Source: a virus
Taxonomy: Duplodnaviria > Heunggongvirae > Uroviricota > Caudoviricetes
Virus record (IMG/VR): IMGVR_UViG_2529292734_000008
Span: 1 to 7,538 of that record
DNA: 7,538 nucleotides
Direction: 5' to 3' (one strand)
The translations under genes were made by a program, and so were the position numbers. How positions within the stretch are numbered: position 1 is the stretch's first letter; every line of letters starts with the position of its first letter. Of this stretch, positions 1 through 7,538 are shown in pieces. Below the pieces are notes generated by a model. It searched no databases, was not told the DNA's origin, and saw only the letters and a program-made list of their open reading frames with translations.

Positions 1-523
1 TTACCCGTTCTGTGCGGATCACTTTCAGGGCGCTGCTCACCAGTTCCAGTTGTTCTGCGCTGACTTCCCCCAGATAATCCAGCTCACCGCCACACTCCGG
101 GCAACAGCTTTCTTCAGGCTCCAGGCGGTATATCTCACGGGGGAGATGTGCCGGTAACGGACGACGATGGCGCGACTGTCGCAACTGGCGGGGAACCAGT
201 GGGTCATCCTCACGCCCACTGTAACGATCGCTTTCCTGCTCGCGTTGTTTCAGCAGGGCTTCAGCCTGTTCAACCTCACGACGCAGTTTTTCAGAACGGG
301 TTCCGAACAGCATCCGGCGCAGTTTTCTATCTGAGCCCGCAGATGCTCTATTTCTCGCTCATCTTCTTCGATCTTTTCTTCGGCACGTGCCAGTTGCAGA
401 GCGCAGGAAGGCCTCCGTCTCTTCAACCAGACTCAGTTGCTGGTCTTCCTGACGGAGGGCTTCAGCCTGCTCAGAGAGCAGCCTTTCCAGCTCAGCGATG
501 CGAATGAGGTATTTCTGACTCAT
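1..523 (-). CDS. tnpC: IS66-family transposase TnpC, N-terminal part (3' end outside window); reading frame appears interrupted
   Basis: ATG at 523-521 gives MSQKYLIRIAELERLLSEQAEALRQEDQQLSLVEETEAFLRSA. A coiled-coil segment LARAEEKIEEDEREIEHLRAQIE then lies in the +1 frame, and the long segment KLRRMLFGTRSEKLRREVEQAEALLKQ...CCPECGGELDYLGEVSAEQLELVSSALKVIRTERV returns to the ATG frame. Read straight from the ATG, the frame hits TGA (plus 359-361) after 54 codons. Confidence 0.75.
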
Positions 524-553
524 GGCCGTTTTTATAATCCGGCCCGGCGTTTT

Positions 554-904
554 TTACAACATTGTCAGTGCGTTAAGGCGGGATGTTTTTGGCTGACGCC
601 AGTCCAGCTTATCGAGGAGCATTGCCAGTTGCGAGCGGGTAATGGATATCTTACCGTCACGCACCGCAGGCCAGATAAACTGACCTTCCTCAAGGCGTTT
701 GGTGAACAGGCACAGACCATCAGCATCAGCCCACAGGATTTTAATCGTGTCTCCCCGTCGGCCACGGAAGATAAACAGGTGACCGGAGAAGGGGTTATCA
801 TCCAGCACATGCTGTATCTGCTCCCCCAGACCGTTGAAGGATTTACGCATATCAGTAACGCCGGCAACGAGCCAGATACGGGTACCTGATGGGAGTGAAA
901 TCAT
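554..904 (-). CDS. tnpB: IS66-family accessory protein TnpB (orf2)
   Basis: 116-aa ORF MISLPSGTRIWLVAGVTDMRKSFNGLGEQIQ...GHLFIFRGRRGDTIKILWADADGLCLFTKRLE, which matches the characteristic IS66 Orf2 sequence as I recall it. It sits between tnpA and tnpC. Confidence 0.85.
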   Translation of the reverse strand: MISLPSGTRIWLVAGVTDMRKSFNGLGEQIQHVLDDNPFSGHLFIFRGRRGDTIKILWADADGLCLFTKRLEEGQFIWPAVRDGKISITRSQLAMLLDKLDWRQPKTSRLNALTML

Positions 905-1338
905 CGTCCCTCCCGGTCAGCTCACGGATCAACACCGTGAGCAGCTCTGGTGAAGGATTTTCCAGCATCATTTTACCGTAATGGAATTCCACATGGCAGG
1001 AAGCTGCACAAGCAACTGATAATGCCTCCGGAGCAGGAGCATCTGTAGCACAGCGCGGGGGGTCGATAAGTTCCACTGGAACCAGAGTCGGAGAGGCCGG
1101 AAAAGATTGTGATACTGTAGGGCCTACAATAGTTGGAGGCATTCTACGAGAAAATACGTCCTTCTCTTTGCCAGAGGCGTAGCCATTTAAAAATCAGGTT
1201 GTTATCAACGCCATGTTCCCGGGCCAGTTGTGCAACATTGGCATTTGGTTTCGAAGCCAGTTCAACCATATGAAGTTTAAATTCATTAGAAAATATCCGG
1301 CGGGTTCCGGAGCGCCAGTCTGTAGGTTTATCCATCAA
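852..1338 (-). CDS. tnpA: IS66-family TnpA (orf1), present as two ORFs in different frames (1338-1144 and 1142-852); possibly frameshifted
   Basis: First ORF MMDKPTDWRSGTRRIFSNEFKLHMVELASKPNANVAQLAREHGVDNNLIFKWLRLWQREGRIFS (HTH-like) stops at TAG 1146-1144. Second ORF starts at ATG 1142 in another frame (MPPTIVGPTV...LLTVLIRELTGRDDDF...). The junction lies at the T4 run on the coding (minus) strand (A-run 1151-1154 on plus). Whether the native gene is continuous is from memory and unverified. Confidence 0.55.
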
Positions 1339-1449
1339 TAGAACTCCGTCTAATTTAGAAGGAGCTCTAATTTAGTCTGCAAGGAGCAGGTGTTACAGAC
1401 GGCATTGGCTTTACGCTTACGATTATTCATACTTCGTTTCTCCTCTTGA

Positions 1450-1839
1450 TCAGGCGGCTGCACCCGCCGTTTTCTCGTACTTACTGATAGTGATCTCGAC
1501 CTTCCCTTCCGGGATAACCGGTCCCCACTCCACCAGCATTCTTTTCACCTGACTGTCGTCTTCCCACACCCCCGCGTGGGTCAGGGCGTCAAACAGCGCC
1601 TTGTTATAGTTGTCCAGATCGCGGATCCTGTTATCCGGAGGAAACAACACGATCTCCACTGAAGCAGGTGCCGACGTTGGTTTCGGCAGACGACGTAACT
1701 GCTCAACTATTGCTGCGCACGCCGCGCTCTGGAATTTTCGCCCCGCCGCGCTTATCAGGCTCTTACCAGCAAACGCCCCTTTGTTGGGGTGTCGCCAGTA
1801 CGTGTTCACGCTGGGCGGAAAAGGCAGGATCAGCTTCAT
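1450..1839 (-). CDS. rusA: RusA-family Holliday junction resolvase (crossover junction endodeoxyribonuclease), lambdoid nin-region type
   Basis: 129-aa ORF with PPSVNTYWR...RIRDLDNYNKALFDALTHAGVWEDDSQV, resembling the RusA signature including the acidic RDLDN motif. Its ATG overlaps the stop of the upstream gene (ATGA). Confidence 0.85.
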   Translation of the reverse strand: MKLILPFPPSVNTYWRHPNKGAFAGKSLISAAGRKFQSAACAAIVEQLRRLPKPTSAPASVEIVLFPPDNRIRDLDNYNKALFDALTHAGVWEDDSQVKRMLVEWGPVIPEGKVEITISKYEKTAGAAA

Positions 1840-2162
1840 ACTTTCAGGCCCCTCTCATGTAACCAGTGGGTTGCACGCAGCCTTGCGTTTTCCTCACCGG
1901 CAAGCAGTGAGCGGATAATCCCGACCGCCTCGCTGTCGTCGTCCTTCACCGCGGTATGAAGCGTGATGCCCCGGGCCACGCCACGCTTTATCGTGATGAC
2001 GCCTTTTTTCTCCAGTGCGCGAAGATGCTCCACCGCTGCATTCACTGAACGGTATCCCAGCATGGTTGCCACCTCCTGATTGGTTGGCGGGAAGCCACGT
2101 TCTTTCTGATAAGAAATCAGCATATCCAGCACCTGCTGCTGGCATTGAGTTAACGTCGTCAT
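1836..2162 (-). CDS. LexA-like DNA-binding protein (LexA N-terminal winged-HTH domain only, no S24 peptidase domain)
   Basis: 108-aa ORF MTTLTQCQQQVLDMLISYQKERGFPPTNQEVATMLGYRSVNAAVEHLRALEKKGVITIKRGVARGITL aligns by eye with E. coli LexA residues 1-70 ([69 protein letters not shown]). The protein ends about 35 residues later with no Ser/Lys protease module. ATGA overlaps at both ends. Confidence 0.75.
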   Translation of the reverse strand: MTTLTQCQQQVLDMLISYQKERGFPPTNQEVATMLGYRSVNAAVEHLRALEKKGVITIKRGVARGITLHTAVKDDDSEAVGIIRSLLAGEENARLRATHWLHERGLKV

Positions 2163-2812
2163 GCCGCCATCTCCCTGACCAGTTTTTCTGCCTGCTGGCG
2201 AACCTGCGCCAGAAAGGCCTCACCACATGCCTCAAGTTCATCGCGCCCGATGTAGCTGATTGCCGGTCCCTTCCAGGTCTTGTCGAAAACAGCAATAGCA
2301 CCAGCGAAGAAAGCGCCTGTCGGCACCTGCTTCTCATCCTTCGGGATAAACCAGGCAGGCAGTTCAAAACCAATACGCCCGCGAATAAAAGCAATATGAT
2401 CTGCATCTTCCGGCCACCACACTTCGCTGGTGGCAGCTTTGATCAGGAAAACATAGCGCCCGCCTTTATCACGCATGGCACTGGCATGCTTCATGATGTA
2501 ACGCATGCCGGTGATGTATTGCCCCTCATGCTGGCTGGCGCGGCTGTATGGGGGATTACCAAAGGCAGCACCTTTAAGCTCCGCAAGGCGTTCTGACCAG
2601 TCATGCGCCAACGCGTTGTCTTCCGCCGTGTAATACGCAGCACATTTGGCGTTATCACCGTCAGTAAACAGATCCAGAACAAACGGGCCAAACAGAGTGT
2701 TAATTCCCCAGAAAATGTTGTCCGGCGTGCGCCACTGATCGCCCACTTCCTTCAGTTCATGGGCTGGTTTGTTCCGCAGTTCCGCCAGCGCCTGGCAATA
2801 TTTATTACTCAT
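2159..2812 (-). CDS. Phage N6-adenine DNA methyltransferase (Dam-like orphan MTase)
   Basis: ORF contains the motif-IV sequence FGNPPYS (NPPY) and an overall phage N-6-adenine MTase-like sequence. The likely start is ATG 2812-2810, overlapping the upstream stop as TAATG, with GGGGG just upstream. The ORF track extends to a GTG at 2845. Confidence 0.8.
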   Translation of the reverse strand: MSNKYCQALAELRNKPAHELKEVGDQWRTPDNIFWGINTLFGPFVLDLFTDGDNAKCAAYYTAEDNALAHDWSERLAELKGAAFGNPPYSRASQHEGQYITGMRYIMKHASAMRDKGGRYVFLIKAATSEVWWPEDADHIAFIRGRIGFELPAWFIPKDEKQVPTGAFFAGAIAVFDKTWKGPAISYIGRDELEACGEAFLAQVRQQAEKLVREMAA

Positions 2813-3306
2813 TAAGCCCCCACGTAATTCCCTGAGAGATACCACTCTTCACCTGATGCAGCCCGCTTACTGCTTTTCCGTAAACACAGTTCACGACGTG
2901 CCAGAAAATTGTTTCGTTCTGGCTGGGAGTGGCTTTCACGGAATGCCGCCATCCACACCGTTGCAGCACGACGGTATAAGCCCCTGGACTCCAGTTCTTC
3001 CGCCTGGCGGGTCAGGCACAAAATCACCCGCGGGTCGTTAGTGCCGACATAGAAATTGCGCACAGGTCTGGTTTCACGAACTGGTTGTGGTTCCGGATCC
3101 TGCGCTCTCTCAGTCAGGCGCGGGAAATGTCTGTGTGTATCTCCTTCACAACGGTGAGCCACACGCCCACTCTGACGTAACTTGCTTGCTGACTGCAGAA
3201 CGCGCTGCCGTGAGTAACCTGCAAAAGCATCCGCAATGTCTCCGGAAGTACAGCCCGGATGGGCTTCAATGAATTTCTGAACGTCATTCAAAAGACTCAT
3301 GCTCAC
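2812..3306 (-). CDS. Phage regulatory protein, winged-helix-like N-terminus with PerC-like C-terminal region (putative)
   Basis: 164-aa ORF translationally coupled at both ends (ATGA with the replication gene stop; TAATG with the MTase start). The C-terminal segment LESRGLYRRAATVWMAAF resembles the conserved core I recall for PerC/Pch-family activators; this assignment is from memory and is tentative. Confidence 0.55.
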   Translation of the reverse strand: MSMSLLNDVQKFIEAHPGCTSGDIADAFAGYSRQRVLQSASKLRQSGRVAHRCEGDTHRHFPRLTERAQDPEPQPVRETRPVRNFYVGTNDPRVILCLTRQAEELESRGLYRRAATVWMAAFRESHSQPERNNFLARRELCLRKSSKRAASGEEWYLSGNYVGA

Positions 3307-4244
3307 CCCCTGAATCCTGCCGGGATCTGGCTGTAGTCCACATTGTCGTAACTGGCTTTGAAGTACGGGTCTTCGCGTTTTTCTGTGTACGTGCTGACGG
3401 ACGGCGATAAGCGCAGGGAAAGCTCATCCCATTTTTCCCGCAGCTTCGACGGGCTGAGCACGTTACGGCACCAGAACGGATCGCGGCTGACGCGGCTGTA
3501 CATCTCGCAGATTTGTTTGTGAGTACGACCATCCTGCACACACATCAGGCGAATTTCGTTTGCCCAGGCTGTCCAGTTCGGTTCTTTGGGACGAACCACC
3601 TCGCCGTCACATTCGGCAGCCTGCTCGTACAGGGCGATGATTTTTTTCCAGAGCCACTGTGCGCAGGTCAAATCATCCTGCGTCCCCCACTGGCGCTTTT
3701 TAGGGCTGAATACAACCGCATCAGGATGGCGAGTTAAAAAATCCTGTTCAGCCGTCTGCGTGTCCGGTTGCGAAGCGTCCGGACGAGAAGGTTTTTTATC
3801 TGACGGATCATGTTTTGATTTTACTGACGGATCCCCGCCAGATTCTGACGGGTGAAAACCCGCTTTTTTGCCAGATTTCGACGCATCAAATTTTGACGGG
3901 TCAGATTTTGATGCGTCAGATTTTGACGGGTCAGAATCTGACAGTTGAGAAAATGCCGCTGCCTGAAGCTTCGCAACGTTAAGCTGATAAACATTCGACG
4001 CATTGCGGTTACCCTGGCGACGCGCCTTACGCGTTAACCAGCCTTCTGCTTCCAGCCGTGCGATAGCCGTTCTGACGGTACTCATCCCCGCGCCAATCTG
4101 ACGGGCAATGGTTTCAATTGATGGCCAGCACACACCTTCGTCATTACTGAAATCAGCCAGGCGGGCCATAATTGCCACGCTGGATAACTTCATGCCTGAT
4201 GCAGCGCAACCATCCCATACATAGCCGGTTAATTTAGTGCTCAT
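3303..4244 (-). CDS. Phage replication initiation protein (lambda O-like function): N-terminal HTH DNA-binding domain, low-complexity linker, C-terminal domain
   Basis: 313-aa ORF. The N-terminus ([70 protein letters not shown]) is typical of phage replication-initiator HTH domains. The central linker SDSDPSKSDASKSDPSKFDASKS is encoded by tandem DNA repeats. SD GAGGT lies 5 nt upstream of the ATG. Confidence 0.8.
   Translation of the reverse strand: MSTKLTGYVWDGCAASGMKLSSVAIMARLADFSNDEGVCWPSIETIARQIGAGMSTVRTAIARLEAEGWLTRKARRQGNRNASNVYQLNVAKLQAAAFSQLSDSDPSKSDASKSDPSKFDASKSGKKAGFHPSESGGDPSVKSKHDPSDKKPSRPDASQPDTQTAEQDFLTRHPDAVVFSPKKRQWGTQDDLTCAQWLWKKIIALYEQAAECDGEVVRPKEPNWTAWANEIRLMCVQDGRTHKQICEMYSRVSRDPFWCRNVLSPSKLREKWDELSLRLSPSVSTYTEKREDPYFKASYDNVDYSQIPAGFRG
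3798..3950. repeat. Putative replication origin: about 8 iterons with 10-bp core TGAYGSRTCA inside the replication-initiator gene
   Basis: Core copies at about 3801, 3825, 3846, 3880, 3895, 3910, 3925 and 3940, the last four at exact 15-bp spacing (GATTT-TGACGGGTCA). Flanking T-rich tracts at 3791-3797 and 3864-3869. The position matches the lambda arrangement where ori lies within the O gene linker. Confidence 0.6.
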
Positions 4245-4592
4245 GACCGACCTCTATTTCCCTGAATTTACGACGAAACTGTTCGAGCGGACTGAAGCAT
4301 TCATGCTCATAACCTTCGCGGAGGTAGATAACCCGTTGTGTTTCCGGCTCCCAACGAATGACTCTGACGGGCACTCCGTAGTGATCTTTGAACCAGCGGT
4401 TAACTTGTCGCAAAGGACTGTCTCCTTCTGCCGGTTGAAATCACCCACAGCCCACTCTGCAAAGCTGTGGGTTACAATTTCCCTGTCACCTGGTACATTC
4501 ACTGCATAGCAATATTCCACCTTCGCTTTTCCACCCGGAACAGGAAGCGCAATCAGTTGCGAGCGACGGTAGTGTGTTGTTAAACTGTTCAT
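4234..4592 (-). CDS. Hypothetical phage protein, apparently frameshifted (N-terminal part in one frame, protein-like C-terminal part in another)
   Basis: The track ORF 4592-4254 starts [51 protein letters not shown] and then degenerates into a Ser/Thr-rich tail. From 4440 down to TAA 4236-4234 a second frame encodes [68 protein letters not shown]. The start overlaps the upstream gene stop as ATGA. Confidence 0.5.
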
Positions 4593-4957
4593 GCGTTAGT
4601 TTCTCCACAGTCACGACACGCCACGGCGCCCGGAGCTGCACACTCGCGGGCGTCATTACTTTCTGAAATGCAAAAAATTTTGTAGACCAGTGCTGCATGC
4701 TCCTGCAGCTTCGAAATTGAGAGGTAGAGCTCGTCATTAATTGCTGTCTTCTCATGCGGTTCCACTACACCGTCTTCGATTGCTGAACGAATCTGTTTTG
4801 AATAACTGCCGATCTGTTCAATGACTTCCAGCAGACGCTGGTTAATATCGGCGTTGTCCACATCCTCGACGTCAGGAAGAGACACAAAGACGCCATTTGC
4901 AGACTGCGCCACAGCATCAGCAATGAAGTGAGTTCCACCAGCACGTTGCAAAATCAT
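4589..4957 (-). CDS. Hypothetical phage early protein (122 aa, predicted helical)
   Basis: ORF with ATG at 4957. Its stop overlaps the downstream gene start (ATGA at 4592-4589). It lies between the cII-like and replication genes in the same operon. No family recognised. Confidence 0.55.
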
Positions 4958-4978
4958 TGCCCATCCCAGCGGGAAAAT

Positions 4979-5185
4979 CTAATCGCCATCGGCACGAAGG
5001 CGGTTAAATAATGCGTTCTCTGTTACATCCAGCCAGTCAGCAGCTTCAGCGTAACCCCCCGGCAACGCTGCGATAGTTTTTCTGACAGCTTTCACGTACC
5101 ACTCAGGCTGTTTGTCTACTTTCCAGTGATGCTTACCCACGGTTAGCCTCATCGTTCTGTGGTTTCTGTTAATCGATTTATCCAT
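4979..5185 (-). CDS. CII-like / YdaT-like HTH regulatory protein (putative), ending at an amber codon
   Basis: HTH-like segment GYAEAADWLDVTENALFNRLR at the C-terminus, in the position of lambda cII (immediately downstream of cro). The start is uncertain: ATG 5185 overlaps the cro stop, with alternatives at 5197 and 5152; none has a strong SD. The ORF ends at TAG 4981-4979. Confidence 0.45.
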   Translation of the reverse strand: MDKSINRNHRTMRLTVGKHHWKVDKQPEWYVKAVRKTIAALPGGYAEAADWLDVTENALFNRLRADGD

Positions 5186-5378
5186 TAGATTTTTCATAAA
5201 GCTCAGGTTTAAATGGCAACCGTCCGCAAGTTCTATATGCAGCTTCTGCTGCACGTCCTTTTGGAATTAACTGGCCCGGACGGTTTCGCCACTGATAAAC
5301 GGCTTCAGTTGTTATGCCGAAAAAAGCAGCAACTTTCTCAATACTGCCGAAGTAGCTTTCGATATCGTCAGTTGTCAT
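5178..5378 (-). CDS. Cro-like transcriptional regulator (small HTH protein)
   Basis: 66-aa ORF MTTDDIESYFGSIEKVAAFFGITTEAVYQWRNRPGQLIPKGRAAEAAYRTCGRLPF with an HTH motif (VAAFFGITTEAVYQWR). SD GGAGGG lies just upstream of ATG 5378. It is transcribed divergently from the repressor gene. Confidence 0.7.
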   Translation of the reverse strand: MTTDDIESYFGSIEKVAAFFGITTEAVYQWRNRPGQLIPKGRAAEAAYRTCGRLPFKPELYEKSNG

Positions 5379-5388
5379 ACGCCCTCCA

Positions 5389-5455
5389 AACTAAGTTTTA
5401 TTAGATGCTAATTACAAATCTATCTTTGGTCAATAAAAACTAAGATTACTTAGTA
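5389..5455. promoter_or_regulatory. Divergent immunity control region (OR-like): two 14-bp inverted-repeat operator candidates and a PR-like promoter for cro
   Basis: CTAAGTTTTATTAG (5391-5404) and CTAAGATTACTTAG (5440-5453; perfect 5-bp arms CTAAG/CTTAG). On the minus strand, -35 TTGACC (5433-5428), a 17-bp spacer and -10 TAGCAT (5410-5405) precede the cro ATG. The first operator overlaps the -10/+1 region. Confidence 0.55.
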
Positions 5456-5475
5456 ATTAAAGAAATGGTGCTCCT

Positions 5476-5985
5476 ATGGAAACGGTTGGTCAGCGTATAA
5501 AAGCTCTGAGAAGAGTTACCAGAACGTCCCAGAAAGAATTGGGTAAATTTTGTGGAGTAAGCGACGTTGCTGTGGGGTACTGGGAGAAAGACATCAATAC
5601 CCCTGGTGGGGAGGCACTTTCGAAATTAGCGAAGTTCTTCAATACGTCAATAGATTACATTCTTTATGGTGCTGAGTTTGAAGGCAAACTCGTCACAAAC
5701 ATGCGCAGAGTTCCTGTAATATCGTGGGTTCAGGCTGGGCAGTTTACTGAGTGCAGGGCAGCAGAAGTGTTTAGTGAAGTGGACAAGTGGGTAGATACAT
5801 CATTAAAGATTGGTGATAACTCATTTGCATTAGAGGTTAAAGGTGACTCCATGACTAACCCTAATGGCCTCCCAACAATACCAGAAGGCGCAACAGTGAT
5901 TGTAGATCCAGATGCAGAACCTCGTCATGGAAAAATAGTCATCGCTCGACTTGATGGAACAAACGAAGCTACAGTAAAAAATTAG
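5476..5985 (+). CDS. CI-type prophage repressor (XRE HTH + LexA-like S24 peptidase domain), truncated by a frameshift; remaining C-terminal codons continue in another frame to 6101
   Basis: N-terminal HTH (QKELGKFCGVSDVAVGYWEKD) and S24 catalytic Ser motif GDSM. The ORF ends ...ARLDGTNEATVKN*. The adjacent frame encodes KKLVIDGPQKFLVPLNPRYPNIPINGNCLIIGVVKGVQYEL* (to TAA 6099-6101), which matches the lambda CI C-terminus pattern [35 protein letters not shown]. The break is in the A6 run 5976-5981. Confidence 0.85.
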   Translation: METVGQRIKALRRVTRTSQKELGKFCGVSDVAVGYWEKDINTPGGEALSKLAKFFNTSIDYILYGAEFEGKLVTNMRRVPVISWVQAGQFTECRAAEVFSEVDKWVDTSLKIGDNSFALEVKGDSMTNPNGLPTIPEGATVIVDPDAEPRHGKIVIARLDGTNEATVKN

Positions 5986-6115
5986 TCATCGATGGCCCTC
6001 AAAAGTTTTTAGTGCCATTAAATCCTCGGTATCCCAACATCCCTATCAATGGTAATTGCCTTATCATTGGTGTAGTCAAAGGAGTTCAATACGAACTCTA
6101 AGACCTCTCTTCTCT

Positions 6116-6183
6116 AACTAAGGCACCGAACTAAGAAAAGTTTGGTGTTTTCTCTTGCCATAATAACTAAGTTAAGTTAGATT
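6116..6183 (+). promoter_or_regulatory. OL/PL-like element: repeated AACTAAG half-sites, a 14-bp operator-like site and a sigma70-like promoter pointing rightward
   Basis: AACTAAG at 6116-6122, 6129-6135 and 6165-6171. CTAAGTTAAGTTAG at 6167-6180 matches the OR motif. -35 TTGCCA (6155-6160), 17-bp spacer, -10 TAGATT (6178-6183). Confidence 0.45.
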
Positions 6184-6261
6184 TTATGTCAAAGATAACG
6201 AACAGGCAGGACGCCCACGAAGTAGCCGCCTGGGGCATATGAAGTCCAGGATGATTCGTTA

Positions 6262-6290
6262 GCAACAAAAAAGCGCCCTACAGGACGCTT
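6262..6290 (-). terminator. Intrinsic terminator-like hairpin with U-tract, minus-strand sense
   Basis: Minus-strand RNA would read AAGCGUCC-UGUA-GGGCGCUU followed by UUUUUUGUUG (stem 6271-6290, A-run 6267-6272 on plus). On the plus strand the same hairpin has a C-A mismatch and no downstream U-tract. Confidence 0.5.
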
Positions 6291-6291
6291 A

Positions 6292-6303
6292 GCTCTTTAA
6301 CAA
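6292..6303 (+). promoter_or_regulatory. boxA-like antitermination element (12/12 match to the rrn-type boxA core GCTCTTTAACAA)
   Basis: GCTCTTTAACAA at 6292-6303, immediately after a hairpin and about 45 nt upstream of the ATG of the first plus-strand gene downstream of the PL-like promoter. A weak AU-rich hairpin CAAGTAACTGATAACTTG follows at 6319-6336. Confidence 0.45.
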
Positions 6304-6348
6304 TCTGGTCCCCATCAACAAGTAACTGATAACTTGAGGAGATGTGAA

Positions 6349-6555
6349 ATGCACAAAACAGAACCCAAAATCGTCGCGCCTGGCTACACAGATGAGGAAA
6401 TTTATGAGTGGATGACAAAGAAGCTGGCAGCTATAAACCAGCTTCGTGAAGTGCTGTCTTATCGACAGGAAACAATAGACTCCTTAAAAAAACTGGATCA
6501 GGAAATCACGGTTTTATCACAGGATGTTACTTTAGATATTGTGCAGACAAATTAG
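6349..6555 (+). CDS. Hypothetical small protein (68 aa), first gene of the rightward PL-like transcript; AT-rich accessory gene
   Basis: ATG at 6349 preceded by a strong SD GAGGAG (6336-6341). The track ORF begins at an earlier in-frame ATG at 6334. The translation MHKTEPKIVAPGYTDEEIYEWMTKKLAAINQLREVLSYRQETIDSLKKLDQEITVLSQDVTLDIVQTN is predicted helical and acidic. No family recognised. Confidence 0.6.
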   Translation: MHKTEPKIVAPGYTDEEIYEWMTKKLAAINQLREVLSYRQETIDSLKKLDQEITVLSQDVTLDIVQTN

Positions 6556-6961
6556 GATCCCATTCATTTTCGTCAAAATCATCAAAGTGATGAATTTGTG
6601 ATCTCCAGTCTCGATAATCTAAAAATTTCTGGGCGGTTACGCTTATTTTATCAAGTGTGAGTTCATCCTGAATTGAAAGAAGAAGTTCATCAAATTTCAT
6701 CTCATTAATCTGTTTTGGCATCCAGTGATGCTTCATCAGAATAAGGTGAACCAGAGCCTTTTTCCCATTCAACTGATTATAGGGAGTGCCGAATTTCTTC
6801 CGGTGCTCATGTAAGACAAGGTCCAAAAGAGTAAGTAATGTTGCCCTTGATTCAACTTTGCTTATTTCGACTGATGACACTACCCCACTGATTTCAATGC
6901 CCCGATACTTTCCAACATTTTCACAGTGGGATTTGTACAGCGTATAGATATTACCGGACAT
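6527..6961 (-). CDS. Hypothetical protein (144 aa), moron-like accessory gene transcribed convergently to the PL-like operon
   Basis: ORF with SD AAGGA (revcomp of plus 6962-6975) upstream of ATG 6961. The region looks AT-rich compared with the flanking phage backbone. Its 3' end overlaps the 68-aa gene by 29 bp. No family recognised. Confidence 0.7.
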   Translation of the reverse strand: MSGNIYTLYKSHCENVGKYRGIEISGVVSSVEISKVESRATLLTLLDLVLHEHRKKFGTPYNQLNGKKALVHLILMKHHWMPKQINEMKFDELLLSIQDELTLDKISVTAQKFLDYRDWRSQIHHFDDFDENEWDPNLSAQYLK

Positions 6962-6976
6962 TTCTTTTCCTTTTGC

Positions 6977-7028
6977 GTTGTTGGGGATAACCAGATTAAC
7001 CGAATCCTTGTTGTTGGGGAATAACCAG
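6977..7028. repeat. Two 18-19 bp direct repeats GTTGTTGGGGA(A)TAACCAG separated by about 15 bp, in the upstream region of the 144-aa gene
   Basis: Copy 1 at 6977-6994 and copy 2 at 7010-7028, nearly identical, located 16-67 bp upstream of the minus-strand ATG at 6961. Confidence 0.5.
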
Positions 7029-7245
7029 GTCCACCTCGCCTGATGTGGCTAAAAGCAGGCACATAACAGCTAAGTATTTTCAACCAGAGAGAATCCTTAG
7101 CGTTGTGGTGAATGCGGCTCAGCGCACGCGGGTTAAGGTTGAGGCTGACAGTCGACCTTCTGTGGATACCCACCCGCCTGGTGTGCAACCTTCGCCAGGC
7201 ACCGGGAGGCACCCGGCACCACAACTTTATGCTGTGTGTAGTCTT

Positions 7246-7292
7246 GGCGGTACCAGCTTGTACCCTTGCTTCCGGCTGGTACCGTCCTTTTT
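7246..7292 (+). terminator. Rho-independent terminator-like hairpin (10-bp perfect stem CGGTACCAGC/GCTGGTACCG, 17-nt loop, T5 tract)
   Basis: Stem 7248-7257 pairs with 7275-7284, followed by TTTTT at 7288-7292 on the plus strand. Confidence 0.6.
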
Positions 7293-7297
7293 ACAAA

Positions 7298-7379
7298 ACA
7301 GAGAAGAGCATCACCGGACGACGGGCTCATAACCCAATCCATCCGGGCGGCAGTCACCGCAGGTGTTCTTCTCTGTTTT
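7298..7379 (+). other. Long-range helix (about 15 bp including G-U pairs) enclosing about 49 nt, followed by a UUU run; structured leader element
   Basis: 7298-7312 pairs with 7362-7376 (ACAGAGAAGAGCATC / GGTGTTCTTCTCTGT). It lies about 50 nt upstream of the next gene's ATG. Confidence 0.35.
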
Positions 7380-7429
7380 GTGGAGAAACTAACCGACCTT
7401 GCAGGGTCGATATGATGAGGAGCAGCAAA

Positions 7430-7538
7430 ATGGCTAGCGAACGCAGTACTGATGTGCAGGCATTTATCGGGGAGCTGGACGGCGGCGTATTTGAAACCAA
7501 AATCGGCGCAGTTCTCAGTGAAGTCGCTTCCGGTGTGA
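7430..7538 (+). CDS. Hypothetical protein, 5' partial view (continues beyond window end)
   Basis: ATG 7430 with SD GAGGAG (7417-7422) 8 nt upstream. Translation MASERSTDVQAFIGELDGGVFETKIGAVLSEVASGV... is open to the window end. No family recognised. Confidence 0.55.
   Translation, partial: MASERSTDVQAFIGELDGGVFETKIGAVLSEVASGV

Follow-up and report, generated by a model that had tools for sequence, protein, structure and literature searches.

Introduction

In ribosomal RNA (rrn) operons, 16S is preceded by boxB, boxA and boxC. A leader-trailer helix of 25-40 bp, whose 5' strand includes boxC, loops out 16S and overlaps an RNase III site; for this helix, structure matters more than sequence (PMC10250234). 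In lambdoid phages, morons are units composed of a promoter, a gene and a terminator (Juhala et al. 2000, as summarised in PMC4104026). Here we analysed a 7,538-nt stretch of DNA from a virus of the Caudoviricetes, positions 1 to 7,538 of IMG/VR record IMGVR_UViG_2529292734_000008 (the whole stretch is hereafter called the window), in which two short direct repeats lie upstream of a reversed accessory gene encoding a 144-aa protein. The repeats are best read as the conserved right-hand boundary module of a slot for accessory genes (morons) that lambdoid prophages of the SfIV/SfV/Kati type carry in their early-left leader. We further propose, tentatively and at somewhat less than an even chance, that they are RNA elements of the early-left (pL) transcript which would loop out the antisense accessory gene in the manner of the rRNA leader-trailer helix.

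An earlier note on this DNA had placed the repeats in the promoter region of the 144-aa gene and had offered transcription-factor sites, iteron-like sites or a scar of the gene's acquisition as explanations. The evidence bearing on these proposals is given below together with that for the boundary module.

Results

A repeat pair with a third, inverted copy next to boxA

The window comes from a lambdoid phage or prophage of the SfIV/SfV/Kati type and corresponds to its immunity and early-left region; its identity to phage Kati is 100% across 6400-7538, and to SfIV 98.7%. On the plus strand, cI is followed by a pL-like promoter, a hairpin, a boxA, the minus-strand 144-aa gene, the repeats, a structured leader and then a yfdP-like gene and later early-left genes to xis and int. 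The 144-aa gene therefore sits inside the early-left operon, reversed relative to it.

Repeat copy 1 (GTTGTTGGGGATAACCAG, 6977-6994) and copy 2 (GTTGTTGGGGAATAACCAG, 7010-7028) differ solely by one extra A, start 33 nt apart and occupy 16-67 nt upstream of the minus-strand 144-aa open reading frame (ORF); a weak likeness runs for 7 further bases (ATTAACC versus GTCCACC). With copy 1 as an ungapped query allowing up to three mismatches, nothing but copy 1 itself matched in the whole window, and no match arose in 200 shuffles that preserved the dinucleotide composition of the window, confirming the near-identical pair that the earlier note had described upstream of the 144-aa gene. Beyond the gene lies a third copy in inverted orientation, which that note had overlooked (AATCTGGTCCCCATCAACAAG, 6302-6322; hereafter the left arm); this copy forms the left slot edge and starts inside boxA. 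A degenerate third direct likeness, at 7091-7113 (GAATCCTTAGCGTTGTGG / GAATCCTTAGCGTTGTGGTGAAT) to GAATCCTTGTTGTTGGGGAAT, has 76-78% identity and lies inside an STnc100-like region; it hints that the repeat unit arose via local duplication.

The boxA (GCTCTTTAACAA, 6292-6303, plus strand) is an exact 12-mer, matched once in the window (0.08 expected at up to one mismatch), and lies 109 nt downstream of the pL-like -10. The 12-mer matches the rrn boxA consensus (GCUCUUUAACAA). Just before boxA is a hairpin (AAGCGCCCTACAGGACGCTT, 6271-6290) that is conserved at the left of the slot in related loci. Read on the plus strand it is boxB-like, and on the minus strand it is an equally good intrinsic terminator, with an 8-pair stem followed by TTTTGTTGCT. 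A pL-proximal boxA with such a preceding hairpin suggests that antitermination in this phage group may be N-independent and Nus-factor-dependent.

The left arm is complementary to both repeats. In the window, complementarity is 75% across 20 nt at 6978-6997 (copy 1 with the adjoining ATT) and 93% across 14 nt at 7007-7020 (CTT with copy 2). Its duplexes with copy 1 and copy 2 have energies of -25.0 and -27.3 kcal/mol, respectively, against -9.5 +/- 2.9 kcal/mol for shuffled partners. The repeat region is the best partner of the left arm anywhere in 6330-7500. We refer to this pairing as the bracket helix, with 6978-6997 as its right arm.

The arrangement recurs. We compared 37 distinct loci having a boxA no more than 1.6 kb upstream of the island, a conserved element to the right of the repeats that is described below. 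In all 37, an inverted copy lies directly after boxA and pairs with the copy-1 region, with boxA and the island 561-865 nt apart. The mean arm duplex across these loci is -27.0 kcal/mol with copy 1 and -17.7 kcal/mol with copy 2, compared with -8.2 kcal/mol for shuffled sequences. Moreover, the two arms covary. Three loci (L024, L029 and L039) have GGATGACT/AGTCATCC in place of GGATATCC/GGATATCC, and their left arm AATCTGGATGACT pairs with AGTCATCCAGATT; the window's own deletion variant retains arm pairing. In alignment A2, a set pre-filtered for at least 15 pairs, 85.8% of cells were paired, compared with 23-48% when the partner was slid; 11 pairs were altered on both sides, compared with 6.4 in shuffles (1/500).

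Copy 2 forms a covarying hairpin

Copy 2 can be folded on the plus strand as a hairpin (7006-7029) with the stem GUUGUU/AAUAAC and a GGGG loop (7016-7019). G7010-U7015 pairs with A7020-C7025 as the inner stem, which is extended by three outer pairs (C7006-G7029, C7007-G7028 and U7008-A7027). Tallied over 17 distinct variants, the six positions of the inner stem gave 76 Watson-Crick and 17 G.U pairs, the latter valid on the plus strand only, along with 2 A.C and 7 other combinations. Compensatory changes are found at pair 1 (U-A, A-U, G-C) and pair 5 (U-A, U.G, C-G). The 17:2 excess of G.U over A.C favours plus-strand folding of copy 2, the excess being confounded by the G/U-rich composition of the plus strand. 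In most lineages copy 1 retains only the 5' arm and loop; in the window ATAACCAG is present in copy 1 as well, so that the repeat here is 18-19 nt long rather than ~14 nt.

The module is conserved independently of the gene beside it

In an exact-pattern scan of IMG/VR covering at least 120 contigs, the segment from copy 1 to GCAGGCAC (~6977-7062, ~90 bp) is nearly invariant and both its flanks are variable. The same module was found in 1114 of 5426 complete E. coli genomes, about a fifth, and is annotated in none of the 40 records among the matches listed. The CPS-53 prophage of E. coli K-12 is without it, so transcript maps of K-12 are uninformative.

A minus-strand ORF always starts directly left of the module, with its start codon 46-53 nt from the start of copy 2 and a fixed 13-16 nt from copy 1. 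The ORF itself belongs to at least seven unrelated first-gene families: PHROGs 5286, 1244, 3983, 7681 and 10348, whose functions are unknown, a 104-aa membrane-like protein, and proline-rich peptides of 26-29 aa. The last of these (for example MSYDYEERHMPPFKRPEPPPKPDD and MDLCVDKYEERHVPLRQKPPVPPKPPK) opens the slot in four loci (L023, L005, L008 and L068), replacing a protein of 100-180 aa, and could be a leader peptide or a small protein. Immunity type varies as well. The same repeats adjoin a 224-aa SfV-type cI in PhiR29_1; the OR and OL operators of the window are CTAAG-type palindromes and the SfV operators are of the ATGTACCC type, and neither repeat copy is present in SfV. With unrelated first genes and different immunity types at the same module, the repeats are not private to the 144-aa gene.

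The converse comparison was made with relatives of the 144-aa protein (30-37% identity), which were drawn from island-bearing loci, since a search for related loci by protein gave identical copies only. Five such relatives are in single-hairpin loci without the direct repeat (L211, L186, L209, L227 and L201) and one is in a two-repeat locus (L034). The earlier note had said that its reading would be refuted if the repeats were absent from homologous loci retaining the gene and its expression; as far as the presence of the gene goes, this is largely what we found. Its reading of the repeats holds insofar as they are non-random and lie upstream of the minus-strand gene, at mosaic breakpoints, but not in tying them to that gene. 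Transcription-factor sites belonging to the 144-aa gene are not supported, since the identical module stands before at least seven families and beside different immunity types.

The breakpoints themselves raise a further explanation. In megablast comparisons, homology to other genomes begins at 6977, 6991 or 7031, which are the repeat edges, and cargo varies between otherwise identical flanks. The conserved slot edges might thus provide short homologies for cargo exchange between phages, with the direct repeat as a by-product, and the degenerate likeness at 7091-7113 suggests repeated local duplication. However, any conserved element in variable DNA falls at breakpoints, and no target-site duplication or transposase-type ends were recognised. 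Exchange by short homology does not require left/right complementarity, yet the arms are inverted and covary, nor does it require covariation in the hairpin or the concerted change of the two copies at fixed spacing in distant genera (see below). This model explains the cargo-independent conservation, but not the covarying partner abutting boxA, the copy-2 hairpin or the concerted change, and we regard it as quite improbable. Nor is a scar of the acquisition of the accessory gene supported: the repeats coincide with mosaic breakpoints, yet the module is independent of the gene.

An island and two layouts across Enterobacterales

Directly to the right of copy 2 lies the island (CCACCTCGCCTGATGTGGCTAAAAGCAGGC, 7031-7060, plus strand). 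A scan for the island pattern in one genome per species recovered 111 loci, in Escherichia, Enterobacter, Citrobacter, Klebsiella, Salmonella, Kluyvera, Pantoea, Edwardsiella, Morganella, Photorhabdus, Xenorhabdus and others. The 31-nt sequence CCACC(TC/GA/GC)GCCTGA(A/T)GTGGnnAAAAG(A)CAGGC is kept in prophages of more than 100 enterobacterial species (L126-L236). Each locus has a single copy, and the pR side never carries another. The sequence is compatible with a candidate H-type pseudoknot (S1, 7031-7034/7045-7048; S2, 7038-7042/7056-7060; A-rich loop 3), a scheme read by eye from sequences in which the search pattern fixed most positions. A full-text literature search for the island sequence returned unrelated primers only.

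In a few loci (L204, L228 and L170), the island directly follows pL or its leader, with no minus-strand gene, hairpin or repeats; the pL-like layout directly precedes it in L204 and L228. Elsewhere the island stands 10-20 nt before the Shine-Dalgarno sequence (SD) and ATG of varied plus-strand genes. In L126, L139, L145 and L221, the first ORF after the island, 8-21 nt away, is an arginine-rich plus-strand ORF of 38-44 aa (MIDFARRPTRQRAVKLNWVEVNIRRFCYLLAQKGNPDV and relatives), which is conserved in several genera, is in an N-like position and is much shorter than N.

Between the island and an abutting minus-strand gene there is either a single hairpin, with the ATG 43-50 nt from the island, or a pair of repeat copies, with the ATG at 74-80 nt; the difference is one 33-nt unit. 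The two-copy layout is found in about half of 112 distinct sequences. In these, the same 11-14-mer is present in both copies at an offset of 32-37 nt, mostly 33, and it exists in six lineage variants: GTTGTTGGGGA, (G/A)TTGTAGGGGT, CTGTAGGGGT, TTGTGGGGG, TTGCTGGGG and TTGACTGTGGAA. One-hairpin loci score 7-9/14 in the same copy comparison, which is background. The occurrence of the same 11-14-mer in both copies across lineages indicates that the pair is old and that its copies are held alike. On these sequence grounds, the direct repeat is best read as the product of an ancient duplication, in which a 33-nt unit with the hairpin arm and loop was copied. Since both copies change together in other genera, there is also room for a partner shared by the two copies.

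A candidate promoter between the repeats

In a position-weight scan of the minus strand, the highest-scoring sigma-70-like site lay 29-35 nt upstream of the ATG at nearly every locus. In one-hairpin loci it reads TTCACC-16-TATnCT and scores 7.8, compared with ~5.4 in shuffles; in two-repeat loci it reads TTCCCC-17-TAATCT and scores 4.9, compared with ~6. A consensus promoter scan of the window did not report the TAATCT site. A TAnnnT hexamer is nevertheless present in every lineage (TATAAT, TATTAT, TAAAAT, TAGACT, TATGTT). In the window, the -10-like TAATCT falls between the repeats (6998-6993, minus strand), the poor -35-like TTCCCC falls in the copy-2 loop (7021-7016), and the predicted start is at ~6986-6988. 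If transcription starts there, copy 1 would form the first ~12 nt (CCCCAACAAC) of a ~27-nt C/A-rich accessory leader. The conservation of AGATTA in E. coli-type loci is equally explained by the bracket helix, and TAATCT is at present a weak candidate for the accessory-gene promoter. On the plus strand, a search by eye for a spacer promoter that could produce a short hairpin-island RNA found no conserved -35/-10, and no -10 at 15-19 bp from the TTG of either copy.

This arrangement bears on a second explanation, namely that the copies are operator or activator sites through which one protein controls the accessory promoter, copy 2 over the -35 and copy 1 over the start, three helical turns apart. 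A precedent is the P2 C repressor, whose direct-repeat operators flank a promoter. The six variants, in which both copies change in concert at ~33-bp spacing, are what co-evolution with one binding protein would give, and every lineage has TAnnnT between the copies, consistently 29-35 nt from the ATG. However, the repeats are shared by at least seven unrelated genes and by different immunity types, so neither the cargo nor cI is the binding protein, and there is no conserved neighbour gene to encode one, because both flanks vary. A DNA site would need neither the covariation in the copy-2 stem nor the covarying complementary partner that copy 1 has 650 nt away; relatives of the 144-aa protein manage without the duplication; and the promoter is weak, scoring below the shuffle mean and escaping the consensus scan. 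We therefore consider DNA sites rather unlikely. As a model specific to the 144-aa gene, an operator or iteron explains only the concerted change of the copies.

The main rival places the pairing in the accessory mRNA. Copy 1 in the 5' leader would pair with 6322-6302 in the 3' untranslated region, before the terminator, and the resulting panhandle would stabilise the mRNA or tune its translation, copy 2 being a duplication remnant in the promoter region. A strong minus-strand intrinsic terminator (6290-6271) directly follows the left arm; supplied by the backbone, it would end the transcript of any gene in the slot. In PhiR29_1-type loci the stop codon of the cargo abuts the left arm. The fixed 13-16 nt between copy 1 and the ATG fits the same explanation, as do a minus-strand duplex as stable as that of the plus strand (-25.6 kcal/mol) and a C/A-rich motif beside the SD that recurs in all classes. 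On the other hand, a start ~7 nt after TAATCT would leave only half of the 5' arm in the mRNA, and the window has a weak terminator-like hairpin (6445-6420, minus strand) between the 144-aa gene and the left arm. The panhandle also leaves unexplained the copy-2 hairpin with its covariation and plus-strand G.U pairs, as well as why the left arm always starts inside boxA, a plus-strand signal. We consider a panhandle alone unlikely; it is, moreover, compatible with a role of the same elements in the pL RNA.

Other features of the window

The slot's current occupant, the 144-aa gene (6527-6961, minus strand), belongs to PHROG 5286, has AAGGA 8 nt before its ATG and encodes a protein with no Pfam match. 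The pL-like early-left promoter (TTGCCA-17-TAGATT, 6155-6183, plus strand) has 9/12 consensus matches and overlaps CTAAG-type operator-like repeats downstream of cI. The cI gene (5476 to ~6101, plus strand) has a run of 6 A at 5976-5985 where Kati has 7. The resulting frameshift creates a stop at 5983-5985 and removes the last ~40 residues of the repressor, which points either to a cryptic prophage with a defective repressor or to a sequencing error in the homopolymer.

To the right of the island, an STnc100-like structured RNA (7072-7295, plus strand) matches RF02076 at 43.4 bits (gathering threshold 47; E = 1e-7) and ends in a terminator hairpin (7248-7292), which is followed by a hairpin with 25-bp arms (7293-7381). 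No Rfam family reaches its gathering threshold in the window, and over the repeats there is only an 11-bit match at chance level. The other right-flank classes have no STnc100 match, and nothing in Rfam lies near the module in them; other loci carry different long hairpins, opening with CACAAC and closing with GTTGTG. The variety of long hairpins to the right of the module suggests a modular structured leader.

Deposited ORFs cross this region: Kati CDS0006 and SfIV_34 run from 7112 onward, and SfIV_35 is at 6880-7224. We rejected coding readings of it (the minus-strand ORF 6880-7224, which is SfIV_35; Kati CDS0005; and a 681-bp extended yfdP). Close relatives differ by 1-nt indels (CCAGGTCC versus CCAGGATCC, AAAAGCAGGC versus AAAAGACAGGC), and the extended-yfdP reading through the structured leader is arginine-rich. 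These indels and the odd composition mark the long ORFs across the leader and repeats as over-calls, and YfdP probably starts at 7431.

Several further candidates for the repeats were rejected. For a transposon or miniature inverted-repeat transposable element, inverted arms are present but their sequences differ between families with complementarity kept, the cargo consists of unrelated ORFs, and no flanking duplication was recognised on reading the ends. For an integron attC site or cassette, which would have RYYYAAC and GTTRRRY core sites at the cassette 3' end and an integron integrase nearby, GTTGGGG fails the last position of GTTRRRY, the motif is at the 5' end of the ORF, and only a lambda-type integrase lies downstream. 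A DnaA box (TTATCCCCA, minus strand) is lineage-specific, as most relatives have ATATCCCCA. LexA-, CsrA-, ArcA- and PhoP-type boxes gave no consistent match across lineages when examined by eye.

Discussion

In the present study, we found that the repeats belong to a module that keeps its sequence, its spacing to the neighbouring start codon and its covarying complementarity to a boxA-adjacent left arm irrespective of the gene enclosed. We infer from the sequences that the plus strand may be the relevant one and that the arms may pair in vivo. In the rightward pL transcript, the boxA-adjacent left arm would pair with copy 1 or, in this lineage, equally well with copy 2, closing a ~650-nt loop that holds the antisense accessory gene. 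The loop could then be bridged or excised, perhaps by RNase III, and a boxA/Nus complex would be brought beside the downstream leader elements, the copy-2 hairpin and the island. On the opposite strand, the accessory gene might be served by the weak -10 (TAATCT) in the 15-nt spacer, the ~27-nt C/A-rich leader containing copy 1, and the terminator at 6290-6271. Nus-factor involvement and RNase III cleavage at the phage leader are proposed here by analogy with rrn.

Several observations weigh against this role in the pL RNA. Besides the pre-filtering of alignment A2 and the compositional confounding of the G.U excess, duplex energy does not separate the strands (-27.0 kcal/mol for plus, -25.6 for minus; plus better in 22/37 loci), and the pre-boxA hairpin, being a good minus-strand terminator as well, would allow the left arm to belong to the accessory mRNA. 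Among the loci examined, there was no empty slot with a local hairpin. Finally, no left arm turned up at the loci from Photorhabdus, Xenorhabdus and Morganella, and in Photorhabdus and Xenorhabdus an RNAduplex search for it stayed within background. Because these three lineages, in which no left arm was found, keep two co-varying copies, the bracket helix is not the whole reason for the pair. The concerted change of copies in such lineages is explained neither by the pL RNA nor by the panhandle. It leaves room for a shared trans-acting partner, which we judged rather unlikely above, or for the CCCC-containing mRNA leader to pair in antisense with the GGGG hairpin.

In a broader and more speculative form, which is possible though on the unlikely side, the slot would be a generic cassette holder in an rrn-mimicking early leader. 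The boxA-anchored helix would loop out or excise any antisense cargo, so that antiterminated transcription and the hairpin and island would work regardless of it. The duplicated arm would offer alternative partners, and an accessory leader complementary to the GGGG-loop hairpin would couple expression of the cargo in the lysogen to the state of pL.

Its components, boxA, leader-trailer-type helices and morons, are of known kinds, and our literature and Rfam searches returned no description of a boxA-anchored inverted repeat bracketing a cargo slot, with a duplicated right arm and an adjoining island. The module was unannotated wherever we examined it, and is present in prophages of many enterobacterial genera. 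The slot it bounds is a hotspot at which unrelated accessory genes of unknown function are swapped with single-codon precision. Such genes may act in defence, exclusion or conversion, and the recognisable flanks (boxA with the left arm, the repeats and the island) offer a simple route to harvest them. If the proposed role in the pL RNA is correct, an rRNA-style leader-trailer device operates in a phage mRNA, which would explain a reversed gene inside an antiterminated operon, and boxA-tethered long-range pairing could be tested in a small, non-essential system.

How does the locus compare with described systems? Like iterons and phage operators, it has short direct repeats near a promoter. Iterons are expected as three or more direct repeats of 17-22 bp beside or within the initiator gene, with an AT-rich region. 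Here there are two copies only, ~2.7 kb from the O-like replication gene (3303-4244), so the iteron-like sites of the earlier note find no support. The repeats are equally distinct from cI/Cro operators, being unrelated to the CTAAG palindromes of OR and OL in the window and standing also beside the SfV-type cI of PhiR29_1.

Anti-small RNA mimicry of the AgvB/AsxR type, directed at GcvB through CACAACA-like and G/U-rich motifs, was considered and rejected. Only ~8 bp form between CCCCAACAAC and GcvB R1, and other genera have a different motif; the gene for AgvB is at the pR' moron site (PMC4104026), not at the pL slot. The locus resembles prophages encoding the STnc100/PasD small RNAs (RF02076; bioRxiv 10.64898/2026.05.13.724894) in having a sub-threshold STnc100-like RNA 40 nt to the right of copy 2. 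However, the Rfam model covers neither the repeats nor the island, and both also occur with right flanks that have no STnc100 match.

As in morons, the slot gene opposes the operon, has a terminator and upstream signals, and varies in content between similar phages. The difference is that leader and terminator belong to the conserved backbone and the ORF alone is exchanged, at a fixed distance from the repeats.

Among antitermination systems, lambda nutL occupies the same place just downstream of pL and contains boxA. However, the phage order is hairpin then boxA, as in rrn, whereas lambda has boxA then boxB; no N-like gene was recognised, and a further island at pR is absent from all loci. 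HK022 put RNA was rejected as a counterpart, since the island and repeats are absent from the HK022 stretch 18000-30000 and the island is single per locus.

The early leader of T7 shares sequence with the window. The 17-mer GCTCTTTAACAATCTGG, which contains boxA, is identical to T7 NC_001604 813-829 (locus L399), in the early leader downstream of promoters A1-A3. Whereas the T7 helix is local, a hairpin before gene 0.3, the two strands here are ~650 nt apart and enclose a gene on the other strand. The T7 RNase III site R0.3, which is absent from the record's annotation, lies just after the T7 boxA. Two T7-like contigs (L281 and L307) have a boxA with an arm, a small gene, a complementary arm and the next boxA. 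Boxes A that anchor a gene-enclosing helix may thus form a wider phage theme, as such arrangements suggest.

In architecture, the locus can be compared with the rrn leader. As in rrn, a hairpin is followed by boxA and then by a post-boxA sequence (AAUCUGG...) that would serve as the 5' strand of a long-range helix, whose 3' strand lies hundreds of nt downstream with the intervening RNA looped out, and structure is conserved above sequence; arm pairing was found at 37/37 loci, with covariation and with energies that do not tell the strands apart. The boxC (UCUGUGUGGG) is shared only in its first 4 nt (UCUG), and where this phage has ACAAUCUGGUCCCC we take the rrn leader to read ACAAUCUGUGUGGG. 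The phage loop encloses the antisense of a protein-coding accessory gene rather than a structural RNA, its helix is ~18-21 bp as against 25-40 bp in rrn, and its left arm abuts boxA, whereas boxC in rrn is 18-19 nt away.

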